Origin: Spirochaetia bacterium
Lineage (GTDB): Bacteria; Spirochaetota; Spirochaetia; SZUA-6; Bin103
Direction: 5' to 3'
NCBI GenBank assembly: GCA_965203905.1
Contig: CBDBDQ010000005.1
Location: forward strand, 4,448,001-4,512,000
DNA: 64,000 nucleotides
How positions within the stretch are numbered: position 1 is the first letter of the stretch; every line of letters begins with the position of its first letter. The notes below the pieces were generated by a model. The model was given only the letters and a program-made list of their open reading frames with translations. It did no database searches and was not told where the DNA came from. The translations under genes and the position numbers were made by a program. This document shows, piece after piece, positions 26,036-52,109 of the stretch.

Positions 26036-26066
26036 CGCCGGGCAACGCGGAAACTGACGCCCGGCG
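26036..26066. terminator. Hairpin between convergent genes
   Basis: CGCCGGGC...GCCCGGCG inverted repeat between two stop codons; no U tract. Confidence 0.35.
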
Positions 26067-26071
26067 CCCCC

Positions 26072-26845: not shown

Positions 26846-26861
26846 GCGCGTATTGTACCGG

Positions 26862-29561: not shown

Positions 29562-30371
29562 CCCTGGAGTAAAACGGCGGCCCGGCGGTGGCGCCGGCTA
29601 CGGTAGTCTACGGCACGCGGCAGCTCCGCATCAACCTGCGAATCCGGCGAATCCGCGGGCGCCAGACTCGGAGCGAGGCTCCTTGACGCCTCCTGACGCG
29701 CAACGGCGCGCCTTCCGAGGGCGCCGGGGAGCACCACCGTGCCCTTGCGCGTCGCCTCGGCGCAGCGGTCGAGAGCTCCTGTTGCAGCCGGGCGGCGAAC
29801 GCCGGCCTGGTCTCGCGGTTTCTCCTGAGTCGGTTCAGAGAGAGTGAGAGCGTGCCGGTAGCCGAACCGGGTGGCTCTCAGTCAGAGTGCCGGCACCACT
29901 GCGTCGGGCCAGGTAGGTCGAATCCGTCTCCGCCGTGACCTGGTAGGCAGCGGCGGACCGGTTCCCCTTTCGCTGAATCCGCTCGAACGACCAGACTACC
30001 GTAATGCCGGCGACCGCCAGCAACACTATCGCGCTCATCATCATCTGTGGTGCCTCCATTCGGGCGCGGTGCCATCACCACAAGAGGCTCACGACGGCAC
30101 TGATGCCCACGCCCATGAAAGCGAGCCCCCGATGGGCGATGTTCAGCCACCCCCCGCGGCTCGCAGCGGGTCGCCTGTCACCGCTCCCCACTTACGACCG
30201 TTTTCGGCGGATGCCCGGGTCTACTTGACTTGGGGCCCGAGGCCTGAGATTCGTGGAACCGTCAGATTCGATCGCAACTTCGTGAACTGCCCGAACCGAA
30301 TCGCGAATCTGCGTGCCGCACGTGAAGCCATCTGTACTGACGAAATGAACGGGGACCCTCCACCGGCAGCG

Positions 30372-33300
30372 GCTTCAATGAGGCCGCCGGAATTCATCGG
30401 CGAAACCTCCTCCTGGCATAGTCGCGAGCCATCGGCAAGATGTTAGAGCGCTCGTTCTTCAGCACCGCTCCGAGCGCCATCCTATCGTCCCAGGTTATTC
30501 CTCTCATGCTCCTCGGGCGGCTCCTCCGCCCTCCTGTCCTACTGCCGCGGTGGCTGACTACGTCTTCGTGTTGACTCCCTACGCGCTGCCGTCCGCTCAC
30601 GCTTGCGCTGCTCCTTCGAAGACTCATCGCCCTCAGCAGGCAGCATCCCAAGCTCCACCAACTCGGTCCTGTCACCATTGGCATAGAATATAGCCCACGC
30701 CCTCTCAAGGCGTAAGGCTCTCTCAATCTGATCCGGCTCCGTAGGGTAGATGATCTCACCCTGCGGATTCCGCGCGATCAGAACTCCAATCGGATCTGTG
30801 AACCGACCTACCGCACTCTCATCAGTGTCTGACACAAATGTCCTCCTATGCCAGTGGAATCGCCCGCCGGTCAACGGGTCTGATCCACCCGCGTCAATGA
30901 GGCCGCCGGAATTCACCGGCGGAAACACGCGATTCCGAACAGCGTACCGGACGTGATGGGACCGGGCTTGCTTCAATGAGGCCGCCGGAATTCACCGGCG
31001 GAAACGCGCCCTGCCTGACGCCATCGACCCCGCCTGGCGACTGCTGCTTCAATGAGGCCGCCGGAATTCACCGGCGGAAACCTCCCATGCCAACAGGACA
31101 TCGCGCCCGGTAGCAGCCCGGCTTCAATGAGGCCGCCGGAATTCACCGGCGGAAACGCGAGCAGCACCTACCGGAAGGAGCACAAGCTGCTGGCGCTTCA
31201 ATGAGGCCGCCGGAATTCACCGGCGGAAACATGCAGGCACAGGCCGAACTGCAGGAGCAGGGCTTGTGGGCTTCAATGAGGCCGCCGGAATTCACCGGCG
31301 GAAACGCCATGGGAAATTGGGTCTCATCCAGCTGCCGTGACTCGCTTCAATGAGGCCGCCGGAATTCACCGGCGGAAACCACCCGCGCCGCCACCCCGGC
31401 GAACGTGCCGGGGCTGAGCTTCAATGAGGCCGCCGGAATTCACCGGCGGAAACGCGCAGGTACCAGAGCTGCTGGCACCCGACCCAATCAGGCTTCAATG
31501 AGGCCGCCGGAATTCACCGGCGGAAACACCATCATCAAGCGCGTGACCCTCAGCGAGTCGCTCATGCTTCAATGAGGCCGCCGGAATTCACCGGCGGAAA
31601 CGCGGATGGCGTGCTGGCAAGCGCAGCGCTCCAGCCCGAGCTTCAATGAGGCCGCCGGAATTCACCGGCGGAAACCGAGCACGAACTCGCGGATCTCGGC
31701 ATCGGTCCAGGCGACGCTTCAATGAGGCCGCCGGAATTCACCGGCGGAAACCGGCAGGGCCGTTCGTCTGCGCACCAGTGCCATAGACTTCGCTTCAATG
31801 AGGCCGCCGGAATTCACCGGCGGAAACTCCATTGCTCCGTCGCGTTCTGTTCTCAGATTTTGGTGCTTCAATGAGGCCGCCGGAATTCACCGGCGGAAAC
31901 CGGCAGGGCCGTTCGTCTGCGCACCAGTGCCATAGACTTCGCTTCAATGAGGCCGCCGGAATTCACCGGCGGAAACGCGCGTGCCACCACGCCCAGCGGC
32001 GGGTCAATCTCTCCAGCTTCAATGAGGCCGCCGGAATTCACCGGCGGAAACGCGCGCTGGCAGGAGGGCAACTGAAACATGGGCTTATACGCTTCAATGA
32101 GGCCGCCGGAATTCACCGGCGGAAACATCCTCGGCGACGGCCGTGCTGTGGCGGCGGTTGACCCCGCTTCAATGAGGCCGCCGGAATTCACCGGCGGAAA
32201 CTTCGGCGGTCATCCCCTCGGCCAGCGTCCGGCCGAAGCGCTTCAATGAGGCCGCCGGAATTCACCGGCGGAAACGCCGACAAGAAGGCCGCCGCCGAGG
32301 CCAAAGCCGCCGCCGAGCTTCAATGAGGCCGCCGGAATTCACCGGCGGAAACGCGCGCTGGCAGGAGGGCAACTGAAACATGGGCTTATACGCTTCAATG
32401 AGGCCGCCGGAATTCACCGGCGGAAACAGTCGAGCACGTCAACCTGCAGGACGAGAGTCCGGCAGCTTCAATGAGGCCGCCGGAATTCACCAGCGGAAAC
32501 CATGGTAGTGATCCGGTTCACGGGTTACGTATTCGCGCTTCAATGAGGCCGCCGGAATTCACCGGCGGAAACCCCGAGATGGCGGAGAAGACGGCGCTGC
32601 ACCGGCTGATGCTTCAATGAGGCCGCCGGAATTCACCGGCGGAAACTTCCGGTTTGAATCATGGTTCCAGCCAACCCCGCTTCAATGAGGCCGCCGGAAT
32701 TCACCGGCGGAAACTCGTGTCAATAAGCCGAATGTTAAGAATGCTTAACGTGCTTCAATGAGGCCGCCGGAATTCACCGGCGGAAACTCCCCAGGGGATG
32801 TCCGGTACCGCGAGATGGTGCTGCACGCTTCAATGAGGCCGCCGGAATTCACCGGCGGAAACTCCCCAGGGGATGTCCGGTACCGCGAGATGGTGCTGCA
32901 CGCTTCAATGAGGCCGCCGGAATTCACCGGCGGAAACTCGCCGCTGATGTTGCCGTAGTCGTCTGTGTCGGTGCTGCTTCAATGAGGCCGCCGGAATTCA
33001 CCGGCGGAAACGAGGAACGGCGCCGGGTCCGGCCACTCGGTCAGCTCATCGCTTCAATGAGGCCGCCGGAATTCACCGGCGGAAACGCGATGGCCGCGCA
33101 AGCGGATGCAGACACCAACACCACGCTTCAATGAGGCCGCCGGAATTCACCGGCGGAAACAACGCCATCTCCTGCAATCCCATCGTCATGATCTCGGTGG
33201 CTTCAATGAGGCCGCCGGAATTCACCGGCGGAAACGCGGCTCATGCTGCCTCCCGGAGCACGGAGCGCGTCTCGCTTCAATGAGGCCGCCGGAATTCACC

Positions 33301-36300
33301 GGCGGAAACATTCGCAGCTAACAATATCATAGTCTGATTGAGCAAGACGCTTCAATGAGGCCGCCGGAATTCACCGGCGGAAACTCCAGGATCAGGAACC
33401 GCGCCCCGTAGTTGGTGGATGCGCTTCAATGAGGCCGCCGGAATTCACCGGCGGAAACACGCACCGGCCGGCGCGCTCTGGCACGGCCGCGTGATTGCTT
33501 CAATGAGGCCGCCGGAATTCACCGGCGGAAACTGCTCCTCCATGTAGTCCAGCAGGTCCAGCCCATCGCCGCTTCAATGAGGCCGCCGGAATTCACCGGC
33601 GGAAACATTCGCAGCTAACAATATCATAGTCTGATTGAGCAAGACGCTTCAATGAGGCCGCCGGAATTCACCGGCGGAAACTCCAGGATCAGGAACCGCG
33701 CCCCGTAGTTGGTGGATGCGCTTCAATGAGGCCGCCGGAATTCACCGGCGGAAACGTGGCGAAGCCGTCGGACTGTAGCGGGCTGATGCCGTCGCTTCAA
33801 TGAGGCCGCCGGAATTCACCGGCGGAAACGCCAGCGGCACATAATGAGTACCATGTTTGACAAGCTTCAATGAGGCCGCCGGAATTCACCGGCGGAAACC
33901 TGCCGAGGGTGTCGACGTGCTGTGGGTGGAGCAAGCCGCTTCAATGAGGCCGCCGGAATTCACCGGCGGAAACTCCCCAGGGGATGTCCGGTACCGCGAG
34001 ATGGTGCTGCACGCTTCAATGAGGCCGCCGGAATTCACCGGCGGAAACCGCAGCGTACTTCTGGTCCAGGGTTTGCTCCATATCGATGCTTCAATGAGGC
34101 CGCCGGAATTCACCGGCGGAAACGAGTATCTGGTCGGGCTCGGCCAGCCGCTCATCGAGCAGCTTCAATGAGGCCGCCGGAATTCACCGGCGGAAACCTG
34201 CTCGGAAACGCCTACTGGCCATTCACCATCAAGAAGCTTCAATGAGGCCGCCGGAATTCACCGGCGGAAACGCTGCCGCTGTCCATGTCCGCCGGGTCCA
34301 GGTCGCCCAGGCTTCAATGAGGCCGCCGGAATTCACCGGCGGAAACGTGCTCGGGGGAGCCCACGAAATCACCGCCGAACTCCATGGCGCTTCAATGAGG
34401 CCGCCGGAATTCACCGGCGGAAACGTGCTCGGGGGAGCCCACGAAATCACCGCCGAACTCCATGGCGCTTCAATGAGGCCGCCGGAATTCACCGGCGGAA
34501 ACTTGTCACGTCCTCGTCGTCCCAATCCTCCACCACCACGCTTCAATGAGGCCGCCGGAATTCACCGGCGGAAACCCGGTGACAGAGTGGCTGATACCCG
34601 TCCCATTATACACAGGCTTCAATGAGGCCGCCGGAATTCACCGGCGGAAACAGGCGGGCGGGGCCCCGTGGCACGAGTCGCCAGACGGGCTTCAATGAGG
34701 CCGCCGGAATTCACCGGCGGAAACCGGCGGCATGAGGGAGAACTGTGGCATTCACTGACTTGGGGCTTCAATGAGGCCGCCGGAATTCACCGGCGGAAAC
34801 TCGATACGGCAATCCTGGTCTCGCCACTTGTCGATTCGCTTCAATGAGGCCGCCGGAATTCACCGGCGGAAACCCAATACCACGCCGAGCGCTTCGGGTG
34901 CCAGCGCATCGCGCTTCAATGAGGCCGCCGGAATTCACCGGCGGAAACGCCAGATCCTCCAGCGCGCGAGCCGACGGCGCCGCCAGACGCTTCAATGAGG
35001 CCGCCGGAATTCACCGGCGGAAACATCCGAACCGATCCCCGGCCGCGAGGCCGAAATGGCCGAGCTTCAATGAGGCCGCCGGAATTCACCGGCGGAAACT
35101 GACGGGAACGGCGGCGGCGCGTCATCGGCCACGATGCTTCAATGAGGCCGCCGGAATTCACCGGCGGAAACTCGGGCGGCCCGGGCGCCGGCGCATCGGT
35201 CAGGTTGTCCTCGCTTCAATGAGGCCGCCGGAATTCACCGGCGGAAACTAGCTATATGCGATTAGTAGGCTATACCCCGTCATTTCGCTTCAATGAGGCC
35301 GCCGGAATTCACCGGCGGAAACAAGCCCGTGATCTCGCCGCCGTCCGGCAGTACGACAATGCTTCAATGAGGCCGCCGGAATTCACCGGCGGAAACGCCC
35401 GCCTTGCTCCGGCGGGTATTGAACGGGTGGAAGTGGCTTCAATGAGGCCGCCGGAATTCACCGGCGGAAACCTCGCAGCGCCACGGGCTATACTCGCGGA
35501 GAATCGCGTGCTTCAATGAGGCCGCCGGAATTCACCGGCGGAAACGCGGTTCGTACGTGTCGCCCGCGACCGCGCCCGGCCGCGCGCTTCAATGAGGCCG
35601 CCGGAATTCACCGGCGGAAACCGCCCGGATCATCGGCGACATCGTGGAGGAATGGATCACGCTTCAATGAGGCCGCCGGAATTCACCGGCGGAAACGGCC
35701 GCCGAGGACGTGTCCGAGGCCGGGCTGTACTTCTTGCTTCAATGAGGCCGCCGGAATTCACCGGCGGAAACCACGCCCAGGAGCCGCAGAGGAATCCTCC
35801 GATGGCCTCGCTTCAATGAGGCCGCCGGAATTCACCGGCGGAAACGTGATCCGCAGTTGCACCTGCCCGGTCAACGGGCTGTCCACCTCATCGCTTCAAT
35901 GAGGCCGCCGGAATTCACCGGCGGAAACTCCCGCCCGTAAGCCCAATCGGGCACCGGCGCATGCCGTGCTTCAATGAGGCCGCCGGAATTCACCGGCGGA
36001 AACGGCCGCCGAGGACGTGTCCGAGGCCGGGCTGTACTTCTTGCTTCAATGAGGCCGCCGGAATTCACCGGCGGAAACCACGCCCAGGAGCCGCAGAGGA
36101 ATCCTCCGATGGCCTCGCTTCAATGAGGCCGCCGGAATTCACCGGCGGAAACGTCAGGAAGGCGATGGCGTGCTCGTGGTCGGAGCGGGCGCTTCAATGA
36201 GGCCGCCGGAATTCACCGGCGGAAACCTCGCATTAGCAACCTACAAAGCGAAAAAGGCACCTTCCGCTTCAATGAGGCCGCCGGAATTCACCGGCGGAAA

Positions 36301-37338
36301 CGTTGAACAGTAGAAGGATCGAGCCGCACCAGATCGCGCTTCAATGAGGCCGCCGGAATTCACCGGCGGAAACGTGTCGATACCGCCGTATGGTGCTGTC
36401 GGTCTCTTTGGTGCTTCAATGAGGCCGCCGGAATTCACCGGCGGAAACTACGGCATAGTGAATGACGTTGTAGTCTACATGGCAACGCTTCAATGAGGCC
36501 GCCGGAATTCACCGGCGGAAACCCCTGGTCTCCGGCGCCGTGGATGTCGCCCTGCGCGCCGCTTCAATGAGGCCGCCGGAATTCACCGGCGGAAACTCCG
36601 CCTAAGAATGGCGCTATGATGCTGTTTTTCAACGGGCTTCAATGAGGCCGCCGGAATTCACCGGCGGAAACACAGCAGGGTCAAGCGGTTTTCGCAAAGT
36701 TTTTCAAGGCTTCAATGAGGCCGCCGGAATTCACCGGCGGAAACGAGTTAAACTCGCAGCCCTTGGTGACCAAGCCCCATCTTGCTTCAATGAGGCCGCC
36801 GGAATTCACCGGCGGAAACGAGGATTGAGAGTTAGAGAGTTCGTCAAGTCAAAGTGGCGCTTCAATGAGGCCGCCGGAATTCACCGGCGGAAACATCGCC
36901 GTCATCGGGACGCAGTTCGCCGATTCGCTGGCGCTTCAATGAGGCCGCCGGAATTCACCGGCGGAAACCCGGCACAACGACGTCTACGTTCCCCTCGGCC
37001 TCGTGGCTTCAATGAGGCCGCCGGAATTCACCGGCGGAAACCTCGTCCACCTGGTCGTCACTGAGCTTCCGGCGCGTGGTGCTTCAATGAGGCCGCCGGA
37101 ATTCACCGGCGGAAACCCGCAACCAGGCGTTGATGCCGCGCATCGAGTAGACGAGGCTTCAATGAGGCCGCCGGAATTCACCGGCGGAAACATCGTTGTT
37201 GGCGGAATCCAGCTCGGGCATGGAACCGCTTCAATGAGGCCGCCGGAATTCACCGGCGGAAACGCACCGCAGCAGTCGTCGCAGACGCCGCGAAAGTTCA
37301 ACGCTTCAATGAGGCCGCCGGAATTCACCGGCGGAAAC
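30372..37338 (-). CRISPR. Type I-G CRISPR array, about 88 repeats of 36 nt
   Basis: Repeat GTTTCCGCCGGTGAATTCCGGCGGCCTCATTGAAGC on the minus strand (7-bp stem CCGCCGG/CCGGCGG). About 87 regularly spaced copies from 30891 to 37338 with spacers of about 32-47 nt, plus a degenerate copy at 30372-30406. Leader is on the cas2 side. Confidence 0.98.
30539..30835 (-). CDS. Hypothetical 98-aa protein inside the oversized terminal spacer
   Basis: AGGAGGA Shine-Dalgarno 5 nt before GTG 30835; MSDTDESAVGRFTDPIGVLIARNPQGEIIYPTEP...; basic C-terminal tail. Confidence 0.55.
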   Translation of the reverse strand: MSDTDESAVGRFTDPIGVLIARNPQGEIIYPTEPDQIERALRLERAWAIFYANGDRTELVELGMLPAEGDESSKEQRKRERTAARRESTRRRSQPPRQ

Positions 37339-37544: not shown

Positions 37545-37835
37545 CTACACAATGAGCGGTTCGCGCTGCATCGGGTGGAAGGTCTTCCCCAGGCTCACGA
37601 CACGCGGTTCGACGTTGTCGGCGACGCCCAGATCGACCAGTACCACGTGATCCTCGTTATGATCGATTGTTTTGTCGAGGCGTGCAACCAGTTCGGCCTG
37701 GCGGCGCTTGTTCATGCGGCACTGGAAGACCGAGAGCTGTACCCAGGCTCCGTATCCGTTCATCAGCTTGTAGACCTTGCGCCACCGCTTCGGGTCGGCA
37801 ATGTCGTAGGCCACGATGTACAGGTGCTCGTCCAT
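37545..37835 (-). CDS. cas2: CRISPR-associated Cas2
   Basis: YIVAYDIADPKRWRKVYKLMNGYGAWVQLSVFQC. Confidence 0.97.
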   Translation of the reverse strand: MDEHLYIVAYDIADPKRWRKVYKLMNGYGAWVQLSVFQCRMNKRRQAELVARLDKTIDHNEDHVVLVDLGVADNVEPRVVSLGKTFHPMQREPLIV

Positions 37836-37838
37836 GGT

Positions 37839-39644
37839 TCAGCGCGTCGTGAAGTTGGGGTAGGCCGGAATCTCCCCGAGCAGGAAGCGCCCCAGGAGCC
37901 GGGCCTGCATCTCCATCAGGCGGCGGTAGCTGACCCGATAGCCGAACAGCGGATGGACGATTTCGTGGCTCAGGCGACGCTCGAAGGCGGCGATGAACCG
38001 GCGCCGACCCTCTGGAGTAAGGGCAACGCTGCCGGCGGCTGATCTGAAGTCGATCGGCCGTATCTCGCCGTTGTTGATGAGTTGCAGGACGACCGAGTCG
38101 GCGATCAAGGGCCGGAACGGCTCCATCAGGTCGAGAGCAAGGGCGGGACGGCCGTAGCGGGGTTGGTGATACAGGCCGCGGAAGGCATCGAAGCCGACGG
38201 CGGTCAGGGTCACGGTCCAGGCGCGGGTCAACAGCGAGTAGGCAAACGAGAGCAACGCGTTGACCGGATCGGTCGGCGGCCGCCGATTGCGCTTCTCGAA
38301 GTCGAACGCCAACGTCCGCGCCGGCTCGCTCTCGCTGAACATTGCCGGGAACGCTCGAAAGTAGCGCGCCGCGGCCGTTCCTTCCACGCCGAGCAGCACG
38401 GCCAGCGACCGCACCCGTGCCACCCGCCGGCTGTCCTCCTTGAGCTCGATCAGCACATCGCGATTATCTTCCGACCGCTTCCAGTTCCTCCTGAGCAGGG
38501 TGCGGCAATTCGCGATCTTGGCGCTCACCAGCCCCTTGGCGAAGCGCAGACAGATGGTCGGGTCGAAGCTGGCCCGATACTGAGCCGTTCTGAGCTCCAC
38601 GTTCTTGTGGCCATTCCCGATGGTGTGGCCATAGAACCATCCGCCGTGACTGTGCCAGGTCACCGGAATACCACGCCACATCAGTTCGTGCAGGCACGGT
38701 GAGGTGACGTAGATGCTGCCCATGAGCACCACCTGCGAGGTTTCCGCAAGGCGGGCGGTGGCTACCTTCTCGTCGTCGACGGTAACAACCAGCGTCTCAC
38801 CCGACTTGGCGACCTTGGCGCCGCGGGCCTGCACGTAGAGCGGCAGCGCGTCCGTGGCGGGCACGGCGATCGGACGGGGCGCGGCGCCGGGGCGGGAAAG
38901 CAACGCGAGATGATTTACCTCGTCGGGAAGACAGATGCTCACCAGGGAACAGCGCGGACACTTGGGGCTGTCTTCGAGCGGCGGCGGGATGGTGCCGCCG
39001 TGTGCCACGTTCCGCAAGCCCTCGACGGCCCGTTCCGTGGCGGCGATCAACTCGTCGTCGAACACGACCCGTACGCGCTCGCGGCCGGCCACGAAGTAGA
39101 GCACCCCTTCGTCGCACCGATAGCCGTGCTCGCGCAGGATCAGTCCCTGTACGCAGAGTTGCACTCGCTCGGGGTCGTAGGCACCGCGTTTCACGTGCGG
39201 ACGCTTGCCACGTTTGTAGTCGATCGGAACGACGCGCCCATGCTCGGACTCGATCAGGTCCATGCGTGCTATCAACCCCAGTCGCTCGGATGACAGCGTG
39301 ACCGACCGGGCATGCAGCTTCTCCGCGACCTCCTGCGGCGCCGGCATCGCGCCGCCGTCCCGATTGACGCGCCGGTGCGCATGCCGTCCCTCTACGGTGT
39401 CGGCGGAGTCAGCCCACTCGCCCTGAACCCACTCCAGGTAGGCCAGGCGCGGACAGTACTGATACTCGTTCACCATCCGGGCCGGCACCAGCGGACCTTC
39501 GACCGGTGCTCCGGCAGGAGGGAACACGAACTCGCCCTGCTGCGGTGCGGTTCTACGGCTCGCTTCCTCGGTGTCACCGGTCTGAGGAACCAGTGCCGGC
39601 GGCGGGAAGTTCGCCGCCGCGTTCTGCCTACCATCTGTCTTCAC
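37839..39644 (-). CDS. cas1: Cas4-Cas1 fusion
   Basis: Cas4 part: YCPRLAY, IDYKRG, QLCVQ, CPRCSLVSICLPDE. Cas1 part: LGVEGTAAARYF, RNRRPPTDPVNALLSFAY, LALDLMEPFRPLIAD. The fusion is typical of I-G. Confidence 0.96.
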   Translation of the reverse strand: MKTDGRQNAAANFPPPALVPQTGDTEEASRRTAPQQGEFVFPPAGAPVEGPLVPARMVNEYQYCPRLAYLEWVQGEWADSADTVEGRHAHRRVNRDGGAMPAPQEVAEKLHARSVTLSSERLGLIARMDLIESEHGRVVPIDYKRGKRPHVKRGAYDPERVQLCVQGLILREHGYRCDEGVLYFVAGRERVRVVFDDELIAATERAVEGLRNVAHGGTIPPPLEDSPKCPRCSLVSICLPDEVNHLALLSRPGAAPRPIAVPATDALPLYVQARGAKVAKSGETLVVTVDDEKVATARLAETSQVVLMGSIYVTSPCLHELMWRGIPVTWHSHGGWFYGHTIGNGHKNVELRTAQYRASFDPTICLRFAKGLVSAKIANCRTLLRRNWKRSEDNRDVLIELKEDSRRVARVRSLAVLLGVEGTAAARYFRAFPAMFSESEPARTLAFDFEKRNRRPPTDPVNALLSFAYSLLTRAWTVTLTAVGFDAFRGLYHQPRYGRPALALDLMEPFRPLIADSVVLQLINNGEIRPIDFRSAAGSVALTPEGRRRFIAAFERRLSHEIVHPLFGYRVSYRRLMEMQARLLGRFLLGEIPAYPNFTTR

Positions 39645-39949: not shown

Positions 39950-40831
39950 CTAGCGGCTCTTCCTGAACAGCCCGAACGCGAAGTTGGGTGGCGGCTCCGG
40001 AATGTCGTTGCGGTCCTGCAGGTAGCGCTGCGTCTGCTCCGTCGGCGAGACATGATCCATCGCGGTGAAGCCGGACCTCTGCATCTCGGCGTCGATCTCC
40101 TCGGGGCTGTACTCCGACAGCATCGGCTCGCCGCGGCGTTCCACGAATCGGTCCATCTTCTCGACCAGCGCCAGCCCGGCAGCGGGCACCAGGCTTCGGG
40201 GGTACCGGTAGTCGAGCACTACCTGGCTTCCGGGTGCGGCGACGGCGTCGATCTGGTCGATGGTGTCGCTGACGGCCTCCCTGGTCAGGTAGCACGTCAC
40301 CCCCAGCCACGCAAAGAAGGCCGGTGCCTCGGGGTCGAAGCCGGCTCCGATCAATGCAGCGTCAAGCCGGTCCGTCTCGAAGTCCACCGGCACCAACGCG
40401 AGATTCGAGGGCAGCGGGCCAATGCGCGCGAGCTGGTGGCGCTTCATCTCCTGCGACGCCGGATGGTCGACTTCGTAGATGCGCAGCCGATCCGCCAGAC
40501 TCGGGTGGCGCACCGCGAACGTGTCGAGCCCGGCTCCGAGGATCACGTACTGCTGCACGCCGGATGAAATCGCTTCCTGCAGCCGGTCCTCGGCGTACCG
40601 GATGCGCAGGATGATCACGGTGTGGGTGGGCTTGAGCGTTCGCAGCAGGACATCGACCACGAGGCGGTTCAGCACCCAGTTGTTGGCGACCAGCCGCCAG
40701 AACGGTGTCACCATGGCGCCTGCGTATTGGTCGGAGAAGATCGGATTCGGATTCCACCTGAGGTGGCTGGCGCGTACGGCGGCCACCAGTATCGCGGTGG
40801 TGCTGGCCTTGCGAGGGCGGGTGTCGGACAT
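39950..40831 (-). CDS. SAM-dependent methyltransferase, leucine carboxyl methyltransferase family
   Basis: QYVILGAGLDTFA, YEVDHP, VPVDFE, WLGVTCYL. Confidence 0.88.
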   Translation of the reverse strand: MSDTRPRKASTTAILVAAVRASHLRWNPNPIFSDQYAGAMVTPFWRLVANNWVLNRLVVDVLLRTLKPTHTVIILRIRYAEDRLQEAISSGVQQYVILGAGLDTFAVRHPSLADRLRIYEVDHPASQEMKRHQLARIGPLPSNLALVPVDFETDRLDAALIGAGFDPEAPAFFAWLGVTCYLTREAVSDTIDQIDAVAAPGSQVVLDYRYPRSLVPAAGLALVEKMDRFVERRGEPMLSEYSPEEIDAEMQRSGFTAMDHVSPTEQTQRYLQDRNDIPEPPPNFAFGLFRKSR

Positions 40832-40855
40832 GACGCGTCAGTATGTACGCGTCAT
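40830..40855. promoter_or_regulatory. Palindromic operator-like site over the methyltransferase start
   Basis: ATGACGCGT-N8-ACGCGTCAT perfect 9-bp inverted repeat. Confidence 0.4.
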
Positions 40856-40964
40856 CCTCGACCTTGTCGAGCACCCGTGCCGCCAACGCCCTTGGCGCCT
40901 TCGGCCCCGACGCAGGTAGGTTGCCCCTGTGTTGCTATCGCGCCGACCTGCAACTCCTCTATCG

Positions 40965-42215
40965 TCAGCCGTCACGCTGGGAGCCGCAGAACAGGCGCCG
41001 CACCGTCTGGTTGGGAATAACCATGCGGGGAATGTATTCACGCTCTGGTTGGATGCTCAGCAGGCCGAAGTAGTGCAGCAGCGACGGGAGGTTCTCCGGC
41101 TGGGCCAGTTCCTCCAGCAGAAAGCCGTCACGGACCGGGCTTTCCACGGCGCTTTCGCAGGCCAGTTGGCGCAGCATGTCGAAGGTCTCGTTGAGCTTCC
41201 GGTTGCCGGTCAGCAGGTGGCGCAGCTTGTCGTAGTGGACGCGTACACTGCCATCGATCAGGTCGTCCGGCGGTCCACCGTTCGAGATCGATTCCATCAG
41301 GTAGCGGAGCACCGATTTCGTGTGGTAGAGGTCGTTCCGGGCGCGCTCGCCGAATCGGTAGCCGCCGTACCACTCACCCATGACGGCCATCGCCTCGTTC
41401 ACGTCCTGGTCGAACACGCCGAGCTGGCGGTAGCGCTCCAGCAGGTCGCATACCTCCGCTTCCGTGAAACCCAGCATCTCGTTGAACTCCGGACGCAGGC
41501 TGATGTCCATGCCGATGTTGAAGCCGCCGGTCACGCCGGCCATGCTGATCGGCGTCACCCCGGCGACAAAAATGCGCTCGATGCCGCCGTGTCCGGTGCC
41601 GGCCTTGAGCGTGGCGAAGAAGCTGCGGTAGAAGCCGGCAAAGTCCGGGGCCGGCCACCGGCTCGCACCGGTGCCGCGATCGGCCAGAACGGAATCGGCG
41701 AGGTAGTCGTAGCCGTCGATCAGTACGTACAGCGGAACGCCGTGCGTTGACCCGCGCAGGAACAACTCGTTCAGCTTCGATTCGATGCTGGACGCCGCCA
41801 GGATGCGCTGCCTCACCGCGTCGGGGAACAGGTCACGGTTGCACTCCAACGCGTGGCGGAGGCTTCGGGAGCAATGCTGATCGAAGGGTTCCCGCGAGGT
41901 CTCCGCGGCGTCGCCAAGCGCGGAGAAGTCGAAGTGCAGGATGACGTAGCGGTGGCGCTCCGGCGTCGGTCGCCGTGCGATGTCGGTGCCGGCGAACAAT
42001 GCCTCGAACCGGCCGGCGGCGTTGCGATCGTAGTAGTTCCGCAGCAGCGAAACCCAGCACGACTTCCCGAACCCGCGGGGGCGCATCAGAAAGGCGTAGT
42101 GTACCTCTTCCAGCTCGTGCAGAAAGCGGGTCTTGTCGACGTAGAGCATCCGTTCGCGGCGCATCGCCTCGAAGTCGGTGCGGTCGTAAGGAATCTGGGG
42201 ATACGCGGTGCTCAT
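40965..42215 (-). CDS. AAA-ATPase-like protein, apparently lacking the C-terminal PD-(D/E)XK nuclease domain
   Basis: IPY...DFE...YVDKT, RPRGFGKS, LIDGYD, GVTPI, GFTEAEV, WYGGYRF, IPNQTVR followed by an early stop; GGAGGTG RBS. Confidence 0.8.
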   Translation of the reverse strand: MSTAYPQIPYDRTDFEAMRRERMLYVDKTRFLHELEEVHYAFLMRPRGFGKSCWVSLLRNYYDRNAAGRFEALFAGTDIARRPTPERHRYVILHFDFSALGDAAETSREPFDQHCSRSLRHALECNRDLFPDAVRQRILAASSIESKLNELFLRGSTHGVPLYVLIDGYDYLADSVLADRGTGASRWPAPDFAGFYRSFFATLKAGTGHGGIERIFVAGVTPISMAGVTGGFNIGMDISLRPEFNEMLGFTEAEVCDLLERYRQLGVFDQDVNEAMAVMGEWYGGYRFGERARNDLYHTKSVLRYLMESISNGGPPDDLIDGSVRVHYDKLRHLLTGNRKLNETFDMLRQLACESAVESPVRDGFLLEELAQPENLPSLLHYFGLLSIQPEREYIPRMVIPNQTVRRLFCGSQRDG

Positions 42216-42264
42216 CTCGACACCTCCGTCACCTCCGTGGTGAAAATCGGCGCAAATTGGCGCG

Positions 42265-42440
42265 GCCGACATCCGTTCCTTCCATCGGTTCGCGCTTCAT
42301 TCTGTTCTTCAGCCAGGCGGCGACCTCGCTCCGGCTGTTCAGGGCTTCCTCGATCTCGCGTTCAACCGGACTCAACGCCGCCAACCGCGTAGCGCGCTCC
42401 TCGGTGTGGGCGACCGAGCGATTCGAGAGCCATCTGCCGT
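42265..42440 (-). pseudogene. Possible C-terminal remnant of a type III RAMP gene (Cmr6-like)
   Basis: EERATRLAALSPVEREIEEAL..EVAAWLKNRMKRE, then RWKE after a frameshift; resembles Cmr6 tails from memory only. Confidence 0.3.
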
Positions 42441-42464
42441 TGCCGCTCAGGGACGAACACCGTC

Positions 42465-42746
42465 TCAAGCCGTCTCGAACCGCTCCACCGTGATCTGTTC
42501 GGCGCGGTCCCGGGCCTGCCAGAGATCGTAGGCCATCTGCATGCCGAGCCAAGTCTCTGGAGTGGAACCAAACGCCTTCGACAGGCGAATGGCCATATCG
42601 ATGGAAACACGCACCTTCTCATTGACCAGTTCGGAGAGGACGCGCCGCGTCACGCCGAGCCCTGCGGCTGCCCGCGTGACCGAGAGGCCGAGATGCTCAA
42701 GGCACTGTCGCCGGACGATGCCGCCGGGATGGGGGGGATTGTGCAT
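42465..42746 (-). CDS. higA: HigA-family antitoxin
   Basis: MHNPPHPG, HTH, MAIRLSKAFGSTPETWLGMQMAYDL. Confidence 0.93.
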   Translation of the reverse strand: MHNPPHPGGIVRRQCLEHLGLSVTRAAAGLGVTRRVLSELVNEKVRVSIDMAIRLSKAFGSTPETWLGMQMAYDLWQARDRAEQITVERFETA

Positions 42747-42990: not shown

Positions 42991-43080
42991 TTTGCCTGCG
43001 CGTTACCGGCGGATTTGACGCGCAAGGACGAAGCGCTGGATGCCGGACAGGTCACGGGCGAGGTAGAGGGCCTTGCTCAC
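42985..43080 (-). pseudogene. Cas10 (Csm1-like) N-terminal remnant
   Basis: GTG overlaps the csb2 stop (GTGA); MSKALYLARDLSGIQRFV, then with indels LRVKSAGNAQ-KRLR, echoing the Cas10 DLSGIQxF...KxLRARS motif. Confidence 0.5.
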
Positions 43081-44813
43081 GGGGCGCCGGTCCTTGGGGC
43101 GATCGAATCTGTGGCGGCGAACAACCCGAGGCCGAAGTGGCAGCCGTAGCCGAGGGCGACCGGGCCGGAGACCGACTCCGGGAAGTGCACGCGCAGCAGC
43201 GCGCCGTGCGGGTCGGAGGCGCGTTCGCGGCCGCGGGAGCGGAAGCGGTGATACTGGAGCGACCGGCGGCGGTTGCCGTGGACCTCCACGAAGGGGAGCA
43301 GGTCGACCTGAATGCGGCCGGTCAGCGATGGGCCCAGGATGCCTCGACGCTGGATGAGCCGGCGCACTTCGCGGGGGTAGCCGGTAGCCTCCGCCAGGGG
43401 GCCTTCGATCATTCGACCGGCTTCCAGCGTGCGGCGGGCAGTGCGTCCCTCGCCGGTTCGCTTCAGGTGAGCAGTCGGCAGAAAGGGGGTGACGCTGTCC
43501 CAAACCCGTGCATGCCGGAATAGAGCGGAGAATTGCGCGAACTCCTCACACGTGCCGAAGCCTTCCAGTGCCAGCCGCCACTCGCGGCGGCCGCCTTCTT
43601 CGGTAGCGCTGCCCGCCTGGGAGCCGCGTGCCGGTAGCCACAACCGCGTCAGCCGATCGAGGGCGGCCCGCACCCGGGTGTCGAATCCGCTAGCAGCGTA
43701 CACGCACACGTGGTCGATCAGACCGTCCCCGTCGGCGTCCTCCGGAAGCCAGAAGGCATGCGAATGGTGGGCGTCGCGCAACGGAGTGTTACCCTCGCCA
43801 CGGCCGGAGATCTCGGGCGGTGCCAGCGCTCGGGAGCGCCCGGTGCGCGGATCCGATTCCCAGCCGAACTGTGACAGAGCCGCGCGGCGCATCAGCTCGC
43901 CGATCCTTACCGCGTCTTCGATGCGCGGTTGCGGGCGTCCGGCAAGCAGATAACGGGCGACCGTGTAGCGGGAAGGGTCCGGTATCCGTGCACCGCGCGG
44001 CACCACGCGGCGCGGGTGGGGTGAGAGCGGCGTGCGCTCGTAGTGGATCTCGTGCGCCGCCGGAGGCCGGTTCCAGCCGTGTTTCTGGAAATCGGCGGTG
44101 TCCACGGCTACCGCGTCGATAAGGCGGTTCGGCAGCGTGCGGCCGAAGCGTCTCTGCCGCTTCCTGCCCAGCGCCAGCGAGGTAGGCGGTCGCTTGCCGG
44201 CTGCGTGCGCTGCCGCCCGCTCCTCAGCGTCCGCTTGTGCCAGGAGGCGCTCGCGCCGCGCCGCATAATCGCTGGCGGTGAGCGGTCCCGGTACCGAAAC
44301 TAACTCTCCGAAGCCGTTCGCAGTGCCCTCAACGGGCAGACAATTGGCCCCCGATCGATCCCACTCCGCCGTCGCGCTGCACTGCACCCAGCTCTCGGCG
44401 CGGCCAAGGTACCCGATGCCGTCGGCAAGATCGGTAACCAAGTCGAACAGCCGGGGTTCCAGCAGGAGGTCCGGCCACGCGACGACGATCGATGCGCCCT
44501 CCGGCAGGTGAGCGAAGGCATCGAACACCAGGGTCTTCCTGGCCGGCGCGGGCATGTAGTGCCGAGTGTGCGCGTGTACGGCGCCCTCGGGCAAGTGGTA
44601 AATCGGTGTCGCCTCCGCCAGCGCATCGATCAGGTTCGCGGCCTCTTCCTTCGACCAGTGCGCGCAGGATCCCTTGCGCCAGTAGGTAGCGATCAGCGCT
44701 CGCAGGATTCGCCACGGCTCCGGCGGCCACGCCACGTCGGCCTCGTTGACATGGCGGCCCCACGGGGTCGCGTGGTAGCGGTGCGCCGGAAAGCTGAACG
44801 AGAGCGCGAGCAT
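43077..44813 (-). CDS. csb2: Type I-G Csb2 (Cas5/Cas6 fusion)
   Basis: RYHATPWGRHVNEADVAWPPEPWRILRALIA, YLGRAESW, WDSVTPF, C-terminal GPVALGYGCHFGLGLF loop. Confidence 0.93.
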   Translation of the reverse strand: MLALSFSFPAHRYHATPWGRHVNEADVAWPPEPWRILRALIATYWRKGSCAHWSKEEAANLIDALAEATPIYHLPEGAVHAHTRHYMPAPARKTLVFDAFAHLPEGASIVVAWPDLLLEPRLFDLVTDLADGIGYLGRAESWVQCSATAEWDRSGANCLPVEGTANGFGELVSVPGPLTASDYAARRERLLAQADAEERAAAHAAGKRPPTSLALGRKRQRRFGRTLPNRLIDAVAVDTADFQKHGWNRPPAAHEIHYERTPLSPHPRRVVPRGARIPDPSRYTVARYLLAGRPQPRIEDAVRIGELMRRAALSQFGWESDPRTGRSRALAPPEISGRGEGNTPLRDAHHSHAFWLPEDADGDGLIDHVCVYAASGFDTRVRAALDRLTRLWLPARGSQAGSATEEGGRREWRLALEGFGTCEEFAQFSALFRHARVWDSVTPFLPTAHLKRTGEGRTARRTLEAGRMIEGPLAEATGYPREVRRLIQRRGILGPSLTGRIQVDLLPFVEVHGNRRRSLQYHRFRSRGRERASDPHGALLRVHFPESVSGPVALGYGCHFGLGLFAATDSIAPRTGAP

Positions 44814-44825
44814 GTCGGCGAGCGA

Positions 44826-48079
<3,254 letters not shown>

Positions 48080-48090
<11 letters not shown>

Positions 48091-50536
48091 GCGTCACCTC
48101 CACTTCGGTAGCCGATGCCCGCCAGTCGGCGATGCGCAGGAGGGCTTCCAGCCACGCCAGTCGAAACGGTCCGTAGCGTTCCAGCAGACCGCGCGTACGT
48201 TCGGTCCAACTGGCCTCCGAACGGGCGTCCTCGCCCAGTTCCATCACTGACAGGCTCAGCTCACCCCCGGGCCACCGCTCGCCGGTTCCCAGTTCGACGT
48301 CCGGAAGCTGGTCGCCTTCCCACACGCCGCGCGCGAACCGCCGACCGTCGGGGCGGCCTTCAGCAGTGGTCCCCGGCTTCTCCGCGGGAAGCGCGCGCAG
48401 ATTCATGCGCACCTTGCCATGATGCGCGGCAATGAGGTACGCAACCAGGTCGGCGGCGCGCGACCACTCGGCATGGGCAAGCCATGCGAGGGCCGAGGCC
48501 AGCTCATGGCGGAAGTAGGGGCGACCCTTGCTTCGGTCATAGTGATGCGCTTTGGCAAGCACTGGCCCCGAGGCACTCGCGCCAAGTCGCTCTTGGAATG
48601 TGGCGTGGGCCTTCCCGACATCATGCCAGCGCGCCGCCTGGATTACCTCGCGTTTGCCAGTGACGGCCCCAAGAGTCTCGCAGAGCCGGTCGGCCTCCGA
48701 CACGACATGCTGGAGATGAGCGGTGAGAGGCACCACTGCCCGCTGCTGGCTCTCAGGATCCGCGTCCAGCGACTCAGCCACCCGCTGATCAGGATCCGGG
48801 GGATCGATCGGCATGACCGGGGCGGTCACGGTGGGGTCGAATCCGGTGCACGGTGAATAGCCTCCCGCGGTGACGTGCAGCATCAGCACGAGTCCGGGCC
48901 ACGGAGTGGCGTCAAGAGGCACCCAGGCCGTGCCGCGTTCGCCACCACCGCGCCGTCGTATCTGGGGATCGGTCTGATAGGCGCGCAACCGCTGTTTGGT
49001 GCGTACCGCTTTGAGCCAATCGCGCGCCTGTCCGATCGGCACTGCACACAGTTCCTCTCGCCGCGGCGGAGGCTCGTCGCGGGGACCTTCGGAACGGTCG
49101 AAGTCGCGCCAGAACACGCGGATGTCGGTGTCTTCCGCGTCGCGCACGTAGGGCGACACATCGACGTCGAAGCCGGTTAGATCTGGGTCGGTGTCATACA
49201 GATCGATCAGGTCCTTGCGGCGAATCACCCAGCGGTGCGCGCAATCCTCGGCAGCGGGAGGGGCCAGATTCGACGGTCTCGCGTCGTTCAAACTGGCGAT
49301 GCGCGAGCGTCCGATGGCCAGTTCGCGCGGCTCGTACGGGGCCGCCAGGGCGTCGTCAGCAGTGGTAAGGTCGATCCAGTGAATGGTCGCACCGCCGCTT
49401 TCGTTCAGTTCTCCGTACCGGTTCACCCGACCGAATCGCTGCACCATCGAGGAAGCCGGCGCCAACTCGGTGATGAGCGTAGCTGCGGACAGGTCGACTC
49501 CCGCTTCAATGGCTTGCGTGGTGACCACGATCAGGTCGCGCGCCGTGCGTGGCTGCGGCAGCTTCTCCATCTGCACGTGGCGGTCGCCGGGGCGAAACCG
49601 GGAGTGGATCAGGGCGAGGCGGTCGGGCGGCACACCCTGCTTGATGAGGGCCGCATGCACCCGTTGAGCACGGGCAACCGTGTTCAGGATTACCAGTGTC
49701 GTCCGCCCCGGTTGATGATGCGCGCGACCTGCTGCGGCCAACTCACGTACGTAAGCTGCGATGTCGGCCTTCCTGGCGCTCACCGGCCGGACCGGCGACG
49801 GCGCGATCCGTTTCGGCGCGTCGAGCAAGGTGCGGACGGCCGGAGACTGCTGGTCTCCTGGAAACTCGTCGGGAACGCGCCAGACGCGGGGATTGGCCGG
49901 TGCGTCCACCGTGTGCAGCCACCGAGGGTGCAGAGTGGCCGATACCCAGAGGCTGGCGGCGTCCGCCTCGGTCCCCAGTGTTCGCCGCAGCCCTTCGAGT
50001 TGCGTGGAGGTAGCCAGGCCAGAGCTCATGAGCTGGATCTCGTCGAACACCCACTGGACGTCGTTGTGAAGGAGAGCGAAATCGACCGGCCAGCGAAAGC
50101 GGCTCATGGCGTATCCGCGCATCAGTGCGCGGCTGATCAGCATGTCCTGGGTCCCGACCAGGACTGCCGGGCGCTCCGGCCACTCGTACCACCTTGGCTC
50201 GTCCTCCCCACCCATCAGGACGTGGACGTCGCGGTCGGCGTCGGGCAAACGTACCTGCCACTCCTGAACGGATGGAAGCCGTCGAAGCCACGCGGTCACG
50301 TTGCGCGCGGTCTGGTCGGCAAGCGTGCGCATCGGCAGGCAGTAAACCAGCCGGAGCGGAGCGGTTTCGGCTGAGATGACGCGCTTCCAGAGCCAAGCGA
50401 GCACTACCGCAGCGGTCTTGCCGAGGCCGGTAGGAGCTATGAGCGCATCCGGCCAGACGCGGTCGGCGAGCGCTTCCTGGTAAGCGAACGGCTTGGCTCC
50501 CCCTAACGCTGCGGAGAAGAAGTCGCGGTACGTCAT
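48080..50536 (-). CDS. cas3: Type I-G Cas3 (helicase with C-terminal HD nuclease)
   Basis: APTGLGKT, DEIQ, SAT, QRFGRVNR, then WHDVGK, RHELAS, HHG, IADW. Confidence 0.95.
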
Positions 50537-50760
50537 GGGGGCGTCTTCGCTCCAGGAGGAAGACGAACCTTCGCCATCTCGCGCATCTCGCTACTCTCCC
50601 GATCGCCGCCCGCGCTTGCAGCATCTTGGTATAGAATCACGTGCACGGAAGACTCTTCCCTCCACTCCTCGATACCGCCGATGGCGCGAGCACCGACCAC
50701 TACTCGAAACGAACGCTGCCCCGTCGACGTACTCCTGGCGTTCAGCTGCGCTATTGTCAT
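50533..50760 (-). CDS. Hypothetical 75-aa ORF in the cas3 leader
   Basis: Starts just after the predicted TSS and its stop overlaps the cas3 start (ATGA); no recognisable family and no RBS. Confidence 0.25.
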   Translation of the reverse strand: MTIAQLNARSTSTGQRSFRVVVGARAIGGIEEWREESSVHVILYQDAASAGGDRESSEMREMAKVRLPPGAKTPP

Positions 50761-50782
50761 TTCTTAGCCTACGGCGTAATCT
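50754..50782 (+). promoter_or_regulatory. Predicted promoter for the mini-CRISPR
   Basis: TTGTCA (50754-50759), 17 nt, TAATCT (50777-50782). Confidence 0.45.
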
Positions 50783-50806
50783 AACTATATACTTGATCGC
50801 GGTCAA
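50778..50806 (-). promoter_or_regulatory. Predicted sigma70 promoter of the cas operon
   Basis: TTGACC (50806-50801), 17 nt, TAGATT (50783-50778) in an AT-rich patch. Confidence 0.65.
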
Positions 50807-50814
50807 CAGCGAGT

Positions 50815-50920
50815 GTGCTACCGCCCAAGGCGGTCTCTTTGAAGCGATTACGCCGTCGGCGCAGTTCGCGTATGAGCCTCTCTATCCGGGCCTCAACCAT
50901 GAGACCCGGCCTCTTTGCCC
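50815..50920 (+). ncRNA. Degenerate mini-CRISPR encoding a crRNA-like regulatory RNA (CreR/CreA-like)
   Basis: Pseudo-repeat 1 GTGCTACCGCCCAAGGCGGTCTCTTTGAAGC (50815-50845); spacer about 50846-50880; pseudo-repeat 2 TCTATCCGGGCCTCAACCATGAGACCCGGCCTCTTTG. The spacer 5' end matches the cas promoter. Confidence 0.75.
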
Positions 50921-51195
50921 TCCGGGGGCGGTTTCGTCGTCGACCGGATGAGCGGTGTATGCCATGGTCAACGGTGGCGCATCAGCCGGCGACAGAACTA
51001 CGGCGCCGTTCCCGGCGAGCCGCCCCGACGCGCAGCGTTGTGGGAGACAAGGGGTCGGGTGGGTCGGGGGCAGAGCCGTAGCCTGATCCGAAAATGGTGG
51101 CCGCCGTGCACTGCTCCATTGCGCCGGTTTCATGGTCTTCCGTGTCACGGTGCGACCGTGCTGACTCAGCGGATTTCGGTCGCTATGCTGGAAGC

Positions 51196-51354
51196 GTGAT
51201 TCGCGTGGGAGTGATCGGGGCCGGCGCAGTCGCCCCGGTCAGTTGCCGCGACTTCGTCGCTTTGAACCGCGTGTTCGCCGCGCCGCGCGCGCCGGACGCG
51301 GTCTATCGCGCGGCAGCCGCCGGGCGGGAGGTGATCCTCGATGGATCGGACTGA
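51196..51354 (+). pseudogene. Internally deleted Gfo/Idh/MocA oxidoreductase
   Basis: N-terminal MIRVGVIGAGAVA joined almost directly to C-terminal DAVYRAAAAGREVIL. Confidence 0.55.
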
Positions 51355-51467
51355 CGGAAGTGATTGGACGAAGAACCGCGCTGCGTCGGGGCATCGCGCC
51401 ACTCCGCTCGATGTCTCGTGACCGGCGAGGGGCCATACTGAGCGATGGGGAGGCGGGCACCAGGCTG

Positions 51468-52109
51468 ATGCAACCGGACAAGGCGCCGACCGGGACCGAC
51501 GCCTGCATGCGCCCGGCCCGGGTCATCTTCCTGGACATCGACGGGGTGTTGCAGCCGACGTCGAGCCAGAAGCGGTTCAAGCATGATCTCGTTGCATTGC
51601 GCGAGAGCCTCGCCGAGCGCTTCGGCGCCGAATACCGGGAGGTGAACGAGTACGACCTGGGAGCGGTGGTCCATGACTGGCACGCCGGGGCGGTGGCGCG
51701 GCTGCGCGCCCTGTGCGACGACCACGGCGCCAGGATCGTCGTCAGCTCGGATTGGCGACTGCGGCGGTCGGTGGACCAGCTCCGGGCGCTGTTTCGCCTT
51801 CACGACCTGCATCACCTGGTGGTGGACCGCACGATCGACGCCTCGGGGCCGCCGCACTACCGAGCCGGGGAAGTGAAGCAGTATCTGGACACGCACCCCG
51901 AAATCGAACGCTTCGTCATCATCGACGACGGTTACCGCACGGAGTTCGACGGGCTTTTTCCCGAACAATTCGTTCACACCGGAAGCTTCATCGACGAGCC
52001 CGATGCTCTGCGTGCGCGCCAGATTCTTTCGGGTGGGCCGGTCACCCAGGAGAACAGACCTTTCGTTCGAACGGTCTTCCGCGGCGACTACCGTAGTCTC
52101 TTCGGGTAG
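51468..52109 (+). CDS. HAD-domain protein (Swiss-army-knife RNA repair type)
   Basis: VIFLDIDGVL, IVVSSDWR, RAGEVKQYL, FVIIDD. Confidence 0.75.
   Translation: MQPDKAPTGTDACMRPARVIFLDIDGVLQPTSSQKRFKHDLVALRESLAERFGAEYREVNEYDLGAVVHDWHAGAVARLRALCDDHGARIVVSSDWRLRRSVDQLRALFRLHDLHHLVVDRTIDASGPPHYRAGEVKQYLDTHPEIERFVIIDDGYRTEFDGLFPEQFVHTGSFIDEPDALRARQILSGGPVTQENRPFVRTVFRGDYRSLFG

Follow-up and report, generated by a model that had tools for sequence, protein, structure and literature searches.

Does a type I-G CRISPR system encode, opposite its own cas operon, an RNA guide directed at its own promoter? The question is raised by a short intergenic element in the window analysed here, a stretch of 64,000 nucleotides (nt) from a Spirochaetia bacterium (assembly GCA_965203905.1, contig CBDBDQ010000005.1, positions 4,448,001 to 4,512,000). 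By its gene content, the minus strand of the window carries a complete type I-G system, in which Cas3g, Cas8g/Csx17, Csb1/Cas7g and Csb2 all exceed their NCBIfam cut-offs (4/4; Table 1). Type I-G is, to our knowledge, the least studied type I subtype, and a search of the literature found nothing on its regulation.

A first-pass annotation had described the element as a degenerate mini-CRISPR with a guide that is a partial match to the type I-G cas promoter, next to a TTN protospacer-adjacent motif (PAM), and the comparative evidence presented below supports this description. We judge it likely that the element is a conserved, degenerate type I-G mini-CRISPR, most likely encoding a CRISPR RNA (crRNA)-like regulatory RNA of the CreR, or cr-like RNA, kind. 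This reading is favoured because of the anatomy of the element, its conservation, the co-variation of its spacer and target, the TTN PAM, a 5+1 pattern of mismatches, and a target that lies on a predicted promoter.

Anatomy of the element and its predicted target

The element occupies the plus strand, 280-385 nt upstream of cas3 and divergent from the cas operon. It consists of a degenerate, repeat-like pair that flanks a spacer-sized segment beside the cas genes and outside the array. The hairpin and the 5' handle of pseudo-repeat 1 have the same spacing as their counterpart in the array repeat (GGCGG-CCTC-ATTGAAGC; entire repeat in the crRNA sense, GTTTCCGCCGGTGAATTCCGGCGGCCTCATTGAAGC), and the handle itself is kept (TTTGAAGC, compared with ATTGAAGC in the array). 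This hairpin is also present in the centroid fold. Pseudo-repeat 2 contains a longer hairpin, CCGGG-C-CTCA/TGAG-A-CCCGG, followed by CCTCTTTG at positions 50910-50917; hairpin and CCTC are thus retained, and the GAAGC tail is missing. By analogy with the array repeat, Csb2 is predicted to cut after position 50913. All of the letters quoted in the first-pass annotation were found at the positions it gave. Its gap of about 35 nt is indeed spacer-sized, and is corrected here to about 36 nt, slightly below the 37-40 nt that most main-array spacers measure. An Rfam scan of positions 50000-52000 returned a chance match to a long non-coding RNA alone (E 0.13).

Table 1. Window coordinates of the intergenic element, its predicted target and the type I-G locus
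Feature	Position	Strand	Description
Pseudo-repeat 1	50816..50845	+	Hairpin ACCGCC-CAA-GGCGGT (50820-50834), CTC, 8-nt 5' handle TTTGAAGC (50838-50845)
Spacer-like guide	50846..50881	+	About 36 nt, begins GATTACGCCGTCGGCGCAG; 3' end assigned from the homology between pseudo-repeat 2 and the repeat model
Pseudo-repeat 2	50882..50921	+	CTAT, extended hairpin (50886-50909), CCTC (50910-50913), TTTG
Predicted sigma-70-like promoter facing cas3	50778..50806	-	-35 TTGACC (50806-50801), 17 nt, -10 TAGATT (50783-50778)
PAM 5'-TTA-3'	50782..50784	-	On the protospacer (cas3-sense) strand
Matched part of protospacer	50763..50781	-	GATTACGCCGTAGGCTAAG; position 1 = 50781
Leader, target to cas3	50537..50762	-	Poorly conserved; 75-codon open reading frame (50760..50536) with no family match
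cas3g	48080..50536	-	First gene of the putatively regulated operon; TIGR02621, 740.8 bits
cas8g/csx17	48090..45769	-	Cascade subunit; TIGR04113, 566.6 bits
cas7g/csb1	45779..44826	-	Cascade subunit; TIGR02570, 118.3 bits
csb2	44813..43077	-	Cascade subunit and crRNA endonuclease; TIGR02165, 160.8 bits
HTH_3 protein	42465..42746	-	Cargo gene; family match
AAA-ATPase_like protein	40965..42272	-	Cargo gene; family match
LCM-family methyltransferase	39950..40831	-	Cargo gene; family match
cas4/cas1 fusion	39644..37839	-	Pfam Cas_Cas1, Cas_Cas4
cas2	37835..37545	-	Pfam CRISPR_Cas2
Main CRISPR array	30894..37338	-	87 repeats; would supply competing crRNAs

Spacer and target are identical at positions 1-11, 13-15 and 18-19 (14/17 over the first 17). 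This match, with its TTA flank and its first mismatch at position 12, had been read off in the first-pass annotation; it was confirmed letter by letter and was recovered independently as a 15-nt inverted repeat of 93% identity. The promoter scan likewise recovered the annotated TTGACC-17-TAGATT promoter, with PAM and seed on its -10 box, as the only sigma-70-like site in positions 50400-51200 (mean of 0.2 in shuffled sequences). The predicted -10 box spans bases 2-3 of the PAM and bases 1-4 of the protospacer, such that a PAM-proximal partial match, bearing a PAM of the subtype, falls on the predicted cas promoter. Indeed, TTN PAMs are reported for this subtype, as the annotation had stated: TTA, TTT, TTC and TTG license interference by the I-U/I-G system of G. 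sulfurreducens (PMC6547450). Among 201 control 17-mers from the same region, none reached the TTN-flanked score of the window. Across the 8-Mb genome, 37 TTN sites match the guide at 12 or more of 15 positions, and the promoter site is the sole 13/15 match with a full seed. The protospacer lies on the cas3-sense strand; the guide would therefore be unable to pair with cas3 mRNA, and DNA targeting alone fits.

A multi-copy, TTC-flanked sequence, present at 20 or more sites of the genome (e.g., C5:4671086, locus L094), agrees with the guide at 12/15 positions, and position 3 of the seed is mismatched. At L094 it lies inside an open reading frame of 706 amino acids (574-2694) with no Pfam family. 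This near-match is probably due to chance.

The target also overlaps a possible -35 hexamer, TTAGCC (50764-50769), of a candidate plus-strand promoter, TTAGCC-18-TATACT (50764-50793), which was read by eye only. The overlap would suit a guide that has its main effect on the divergent promoter of its own gene, or one that titrates Cas proteins as a decoy, with little effect on cas3. We regard this alternative as quite improbable: the by-eye promoter falls below the scan threshold, the sole promoter predicted faces cas3 and has its -10 box covered by the target, and in the loci described below where mini-array and cas3 share a strand, a single upstream target would control both jointly.

Conservation, co-variation and mismatch pattern in related loci

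Because a search of 60 related genomes with the intergenic DNA gave no match, relatives were sought through Cas3g, of which 340 were found in a genome collection (80 kept) and 358 in a metagenome collection (80 kept). The Cas3 proteins of four genome loci (L002-L005), from assemblies titled Spirochaetia or Spirochaetaceae, are 75-79% identical to that of the window. Those of two metagenome loci (L095 and L096) are 74% identical to it; in the upstream stretch that was aligned, these two loci do not differ. All five distinct relatives (L002-L005 and L095) possess the same divergent element, and their arrays contain the identical repeat or close variants of it. In the alignment of the window with L002-L005, the handle and spacer positions 1-17 each show a mean pairwise identity of 0.68, pseudo-repeat 2 one of 0.70 and the target one of 0.56, as opposed to 0.24 for the leader and 0.23 for the downstream flank. 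The segment CCGGG...CCCGGCCTC.TT of pseudo-repeat 2 is invariant in the five aligned loci (5/5).

The repeat ancestry of the element was assessed with a covariance model built from 34 distinct type I-G array repeats of the fetched loci. Pseudo-repeat 1 of the window is the best of 16 non-array matches to this model in 26.6 kb (window 37400-64000). In two of the relatives, L003 and L005, the homologue of pseudo-repeat 2 is the sole significant match in 22 kb, with scores of 31.9 bits (E 4.7e-7) and 22.8 bits (E 1.6e-4), respectively. Outside the main array, the motif CTC[AT]TTGAAGC occurs 17 times in the 8-Mb genome; 14 copies are found in a second array, two stand alone on the same small contig, one lies elsewhere and one is the candidate.

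Guide and target are not only conserved but co-vary. Own spacer and own target agree on average at 12.8 of 15 pairing positions, compared with 8.2 for non-self pairs. The conserved core of the window is shifted by 2 nt, in the spacer toward the handle and in the target toward the PAM, relative to the other loci; its own pair agrees at 13/15 positions, its pairs with foreign partners at 1-4/15. Positions 4-5 read GT in both spacer and target of L095, and AC in both of L003 and L005. Promoters in the cas3 sense were predicted at the targets of L002 (TTGTCC-18-TATTAT), L003 (TTGACG-17-TATGTT) and L005 (TTGACG-17-TATTCT); the scan called none at the target of L004. Such co-variation upstream of cas3 in related type I-G loci had been proposed as a check in the first-pass annotation. 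To judge from these comparisons, the element is not a product of chance: it is a conserved island in a diverged intergenic region, with a spacer and a target that co-vary. An ordinary CRISPR array was ruled out, as the pseudo-repeats are degenerate and the spacer, kept across species, corresponds to a promoter of the host itself.

In L004 (minus strand, locus positions 118-230) three copies of the handle's tail precede the spacer (GAAGCGAAGCGAAGC), and the apparent register is therefore shifted unless the last copy is used.

The poor conservation of the leader bears on a further alternative. In CreTA, degenerate repeats at an ectopic site give rise to a crRNA-like RNA, which directs Cascade to a promoter by partial complementarity (PMC9458426). 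The element resembles CreTA in its crRNA-like guide, its degenerate repeats and its partial match to a promoter. By extension, the guide might mainly silence a toxic RNA or small protein in the leader, such that loss of Cascade would kill the cell, control of the cas genes being secondary. The targeted promoter does precede a leader of 225 nt with a 75-codon open reading frame, followed by cas3, and Haloarcula CreA represses both creT and cas8 (10.1101/2023.03.10.532045). The leader, however, was reported as the least conserved segment (identity 0.24) and measures only about 100-130 nt in the relatives (targets at -105 to -133), its reading frame lacks a family match, and the promoter reads directly into cas3. 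Unlike in CreTA, the sequence under the targeted promoter reveals no conserved toxin candidate, although a small RNA toxin might go unnoticed in sequence alone, and addiction of this type appears improbable to us.

The proposal of a regulatory mini-CRISPR was extended to more distant type I-G loci with a strict pattern, consisting of the handle, 50-85 nt and GGCC.C.TT, within 1.5 kb upstream of cas3. This pattern flagged 13 of 77 cas3g loci from genomes and 5 of 75 from metagenomes, not all of them with a convincing target. It missed L095 and L096, and would also miss the window, because the second repeat reads CCTCTTT. One match (L148) was dropped, since its handle is poor and it looks false, and three more (L007, L022 and L154) were left out for want of a convincing target. 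Mini-array and cas3 share a strand in the distant loci; pseudo-repeat 1 comprises little beyond the handle, and pseudo-repeat 2 consists of the hairpin and GGCCTCATT.

Targets were scored over all 17 positions, with no PAM required, in 15 loci: the window, L002-L005, L095, L008, L013, L034, L037, L051, L063, L080, L118 and L168. The set was assembled after the matches had been seen, and 10 of its loci possess unrelated spacers; L165 repeats the spacer of L034 and L096 that of L095, and neither duplicate was given a second entry. Where top scores were equal (L004, L005 and L118), a TT PAM was given preference, a choice that is backed by the clade alignment for L004 and L005 and is weak for L118. 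With these provisions, the top target is flanked by a TTN PAM in 15/15 loci, and matching stops at about position 15-17. Control 17-mers drawn from the respective regions reached the observed score in 0 of about 200 cases in 10 of 12 loci, in 1/201 for L013 and in 4/200 for L051; the sites tested in this way are also those that lead under the PAM-free scoring.

Within the first 15 positions, mismatches are concentrated at positions 6 and 12 (25/30 cells, compared with 22/195 elsewhere; P 1.2e-15). The same holds for the 10 unrelated spacers (18/20 compared with 11/130; P 7e-14), and any other pair of positions six apart shows at most 4/24 mismatches. On the evidence of the aligned guides and targets, this pattern is the 5+1 signature of Cascade pairing. 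The statement of the first-pass annotation, that type I Cascades skip every sixth base, holds for this subtype as well: type I-G Cas7 presents 5+1 nucleotides, the sixth being flipped out (PMC9638904).

The spacers of the clade (window 50846-50871, L002-L005) form an internal hairpin, e.g., with CGAAC/GTTCG arms around CGCC-NNN-GGCG, the letters of which vary between loci. As a general feature of such guides the hairpin was rejected on comparison of minimum free energy (MFE) with 783 ordinary spacers (p 0.13 for 12 loci; p 0.60 for 8 with unrelated spacers); a p of 0.03 was obtained by the shuffle-normalised z alone.

These palindromes could also be taken as two sites for a dimeric regulator, one in the partly palindromic target core (GCC-NNN-GGC) and one in the spacer, which in the clade folds as a palindrome around CGCC-NNN-GGCG. 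The likeness to a crRNA would then be incidental, and the locus does contain a gene for a possible regulator, the HTH_3 protein of Table 1. A protein operator leaves unexplained the handle, the repeat-derived second hairpin and the spacer-sized gap, as well as the fixed register of the TTN (15/15) and the mismatches that loci of unrelated spacers show at positions 6 and 12. The internal hairpin is, moreover, not general by MFE (p 0.13 and 0.60). We consider this alternative very improbable.

One of the distant carriers is the cultured Thioalkalivibrio halophilus HL17 (L037), in which a same-strand mini-array (about 8459-8620) ends 20-30 nt before cas3; its target, flanked by TTT, lies about 80 nt upstream and overlaps a -35-like hexamer, TTGTAA. 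In T. sulfidiphilus ALJ17 (L047, 9302-10000) no mini-array was found within 700 nt.

Proposed autoregulation and its relation to known systems

According to the mechanism that we propose, the plus strand of the mini-CRISPR would be transcribed, and Csb2 would cut at two points, 8 nt ahead of the spacer and past the second hairpin, to release an RNA of about 76 nt (50838-50913). In type I-G the crRNA possesses an 8-nt 5' handle, and Csb2 stays on the 3' hairpin via its Cas6 domain (PMC9638904). Cas7g, Csb2 and Cas8g would assemble on the guide RNA, probably together with Cas3g, a stable part of the type I-G Cascade. The complex would read the TTA, and spacer positions 1-11 and 13-15 would base-pair to the template strand, over both the -10 box and the start site of the operon promoter. 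With pairing ending after about 15-19 nt, the R-loop would stay partial; RNA polymerase would be blocked at the cas3-cas8g-cas7g-csb2 promoter, and Cas3 would not degrade the chromosome. The outcome would be negative feedback on Cas levels, relaxed whenever ordinary crRNAs or anti-CRISPRs draw the Cas proteins away. Processing by Csb2 and repression of the operon are steps that we infer.

Several observations weigh against this interpretation. Pseudo-repeat 1 of the window is a weak match to the repeat model (12 bits, E 0.18), and pseudo-repeat 2 is not listed at E<=10 in the same search of positions 37400-64000. The hairpin of pseudo-repeat 1 appears in only 3/5 clade folds and is absent from the distant loci looked at, which makes the proposed processing at the 5' end of the guide less certain. 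The spacers of L004 and L005 match the target of L003 better than their own targets, which (at 12/17 and 13/17, respectively) tie with a second site. Three mini-arrays (L007, L022 and L154) lack a convincing target within 1.5 kb, a simple scan of the distant loci called no protospacer-strand promoter at their targets, and no plus-strand promoter passes the scan of positions 50400-51200 in the window.

The spacers of the main array, for their part, yielded no PAM with which the TTA could be compared, be it from matches in the own genome, in phage and plasmid collections or in four relatives. The 87 spacers gave 78 own-genome matches, which are short (16-28 nt) and due to chance, and no match in the phage and plasmid collections. 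In the genomes of the four relatives 12 matches were found, nearly all of them array-to-array; the others comprise one of 38 nt at 84% identity (E 0.004) and a few short ones.

The role of Cas3 adds a biochemical difficulty. Type I-G Cas3 is a stable component of Cascade, required for efficient R-loop formation, and Cascade lacking it bound linear DNA poorly in vitro (PMC9638904). In a cell-free test of a type I-G Cascade from Bifidobacterium, repression of the reporter depended on the presence of Cas3 (PMC9335239). In view of this dependence, safe repression by a complex that contains Cas3 is a presumption.

The weak pseudo-repeats of the window also recall a decaying array remnant, or a chance likeness, with no present function, and standalone repeat-like sequences have been reported for about 46% of type I-G loci (PMC10120712). 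A remnant of this kind would scarcely account for islands of conservation within a diverged intergenic region, for coordinated changes of spacer, target and register, or for a promoter site that is the unique best match genome-wide; the position-specific mismatches, in turn, point to selection on Cascade-type pairing. We therefore give little credence to this alternative and retain the regulatory mini-CRISPR as the preferred explanation.

The first-pass annotation had noted that the principle is known in other subtypes, and this is borne out: it has been published for I-B, I-E, I-F1 and V-A, with I-G/I-U counted or briefly mentioned. CreR RNAs from degenerated mini-CRISPRs were shown by Liu et al. 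for I-B, I-E and V-A, and creA-like elements were found by hand for I-U (supplementary Figure S7; 10.1101/2023.03.10.532045). As with CreR, two degenerate repeats of the present element flank a spacer that partly matches a PAM-flanked site at an effector cas promoter, and autorepression is predicted. It differs from CreR in subtype (I-G), in that Csb2 replaces separate Cas5 and Cas6 proteins and Cas3 is a stable Cascade subunit, and in that the first regulated gene is cas3; it is also known here from sequence alone. Shmakov et al. (2023) treated mini-arrays for cr-like RNAs in detail in I-E, I-F1, I-B, I-D and V-A, with repression shown for I-F1 (PMC10120712). The element shares with these mini-arrays a location near the cas genes, often opposite cas3, a seed that adjoins the better-conserved repeat and matches a cas promoter, a canonical PAM, and mismatches at positions 6 and 12. 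In the main text of that paper, type I-G figures only as a table row of 235 loci, with shares of 0.46 for a repeat-like sequence and 0.04 for a mini-array (PMC10120712).

Our survey suggests that mini-arrays upstream of cas3g are more common than the published 4%, and the share of 0.04 may be an undercount. Reportedly, a comparable natural guide of partial complementarity, tracr-L, represses the promoter of its own type II-A system and thus autoregulates Cas9. The element resembles tracr-L as a partly complementary natural guide at the promoter of its own system, and differs from it in that tracr-L belongs to a class 2 system with a single effector and another RNA architecture. No description or test of a type I-G case emerged from the literature search, although the supplements of both 2023 papers may list I-U/I-G mini-arrays.

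Judged by its sequence features, the element would represent a new example of known CRISPR self-throttling, the part specific to type I-G being the question of how a Cascade with a fixed Cas3 subunit binds its own chromosome without nicking it. A conserved self-targeting guide would provide a concrete, testable type I-G circuit. The TTN in 15/15 loci, the pairing limit of about 15-17 nt and the free positions 6 and 12 constitute in-genome evidence that Cascade reads such guides, and T. halophilus HL17, as a cultured carrier and a close relative of the biochemical model species, makes a test practical. A tentative extension, which we put forward as possible yet doubtful, is that type I-G autoregulation is mechanistically unlike that of I-B, I-E and I-F. 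The repressor at the cas3 promoter would then include Cas3 itself, non-cutting because pairing ends at about 15-17 nt, and in the clade of the window one R-loop on two face-to-face promoters would close a double negative loop over the cas operon and the gene of the guide itself.

The surrounding locus and other type I-G loci of the genome

Between csb2 and the cas4/cas1 fusion, the minus strand of the window contains three cargo genes (39950-42746; Table 1). At the trailer end of the main array, 483 nt past the last regular repeat, lies a terminal degenerate repeat with three differences (30372-30407).

The genome encodes a second type I-G system on a contig of 57 kb (C4), with cas3g at 29855-32656 on the plus strand and an array at about 25853-26959 on the minus strand. 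A third cas3g is located at C5:2149232-2151958, with no handle motif within 25 kb. No mini-array was found upstream of either of these cas3g loci. The 57-kb contig also contains standalone repeat-like handles at 34488 (plus strand), 35447 (minus strand) and 8240 (minus strand). Behind the handle at 8240 come 17 nt that reappear (15/15) at 35374, where they follow a degenerate handle.

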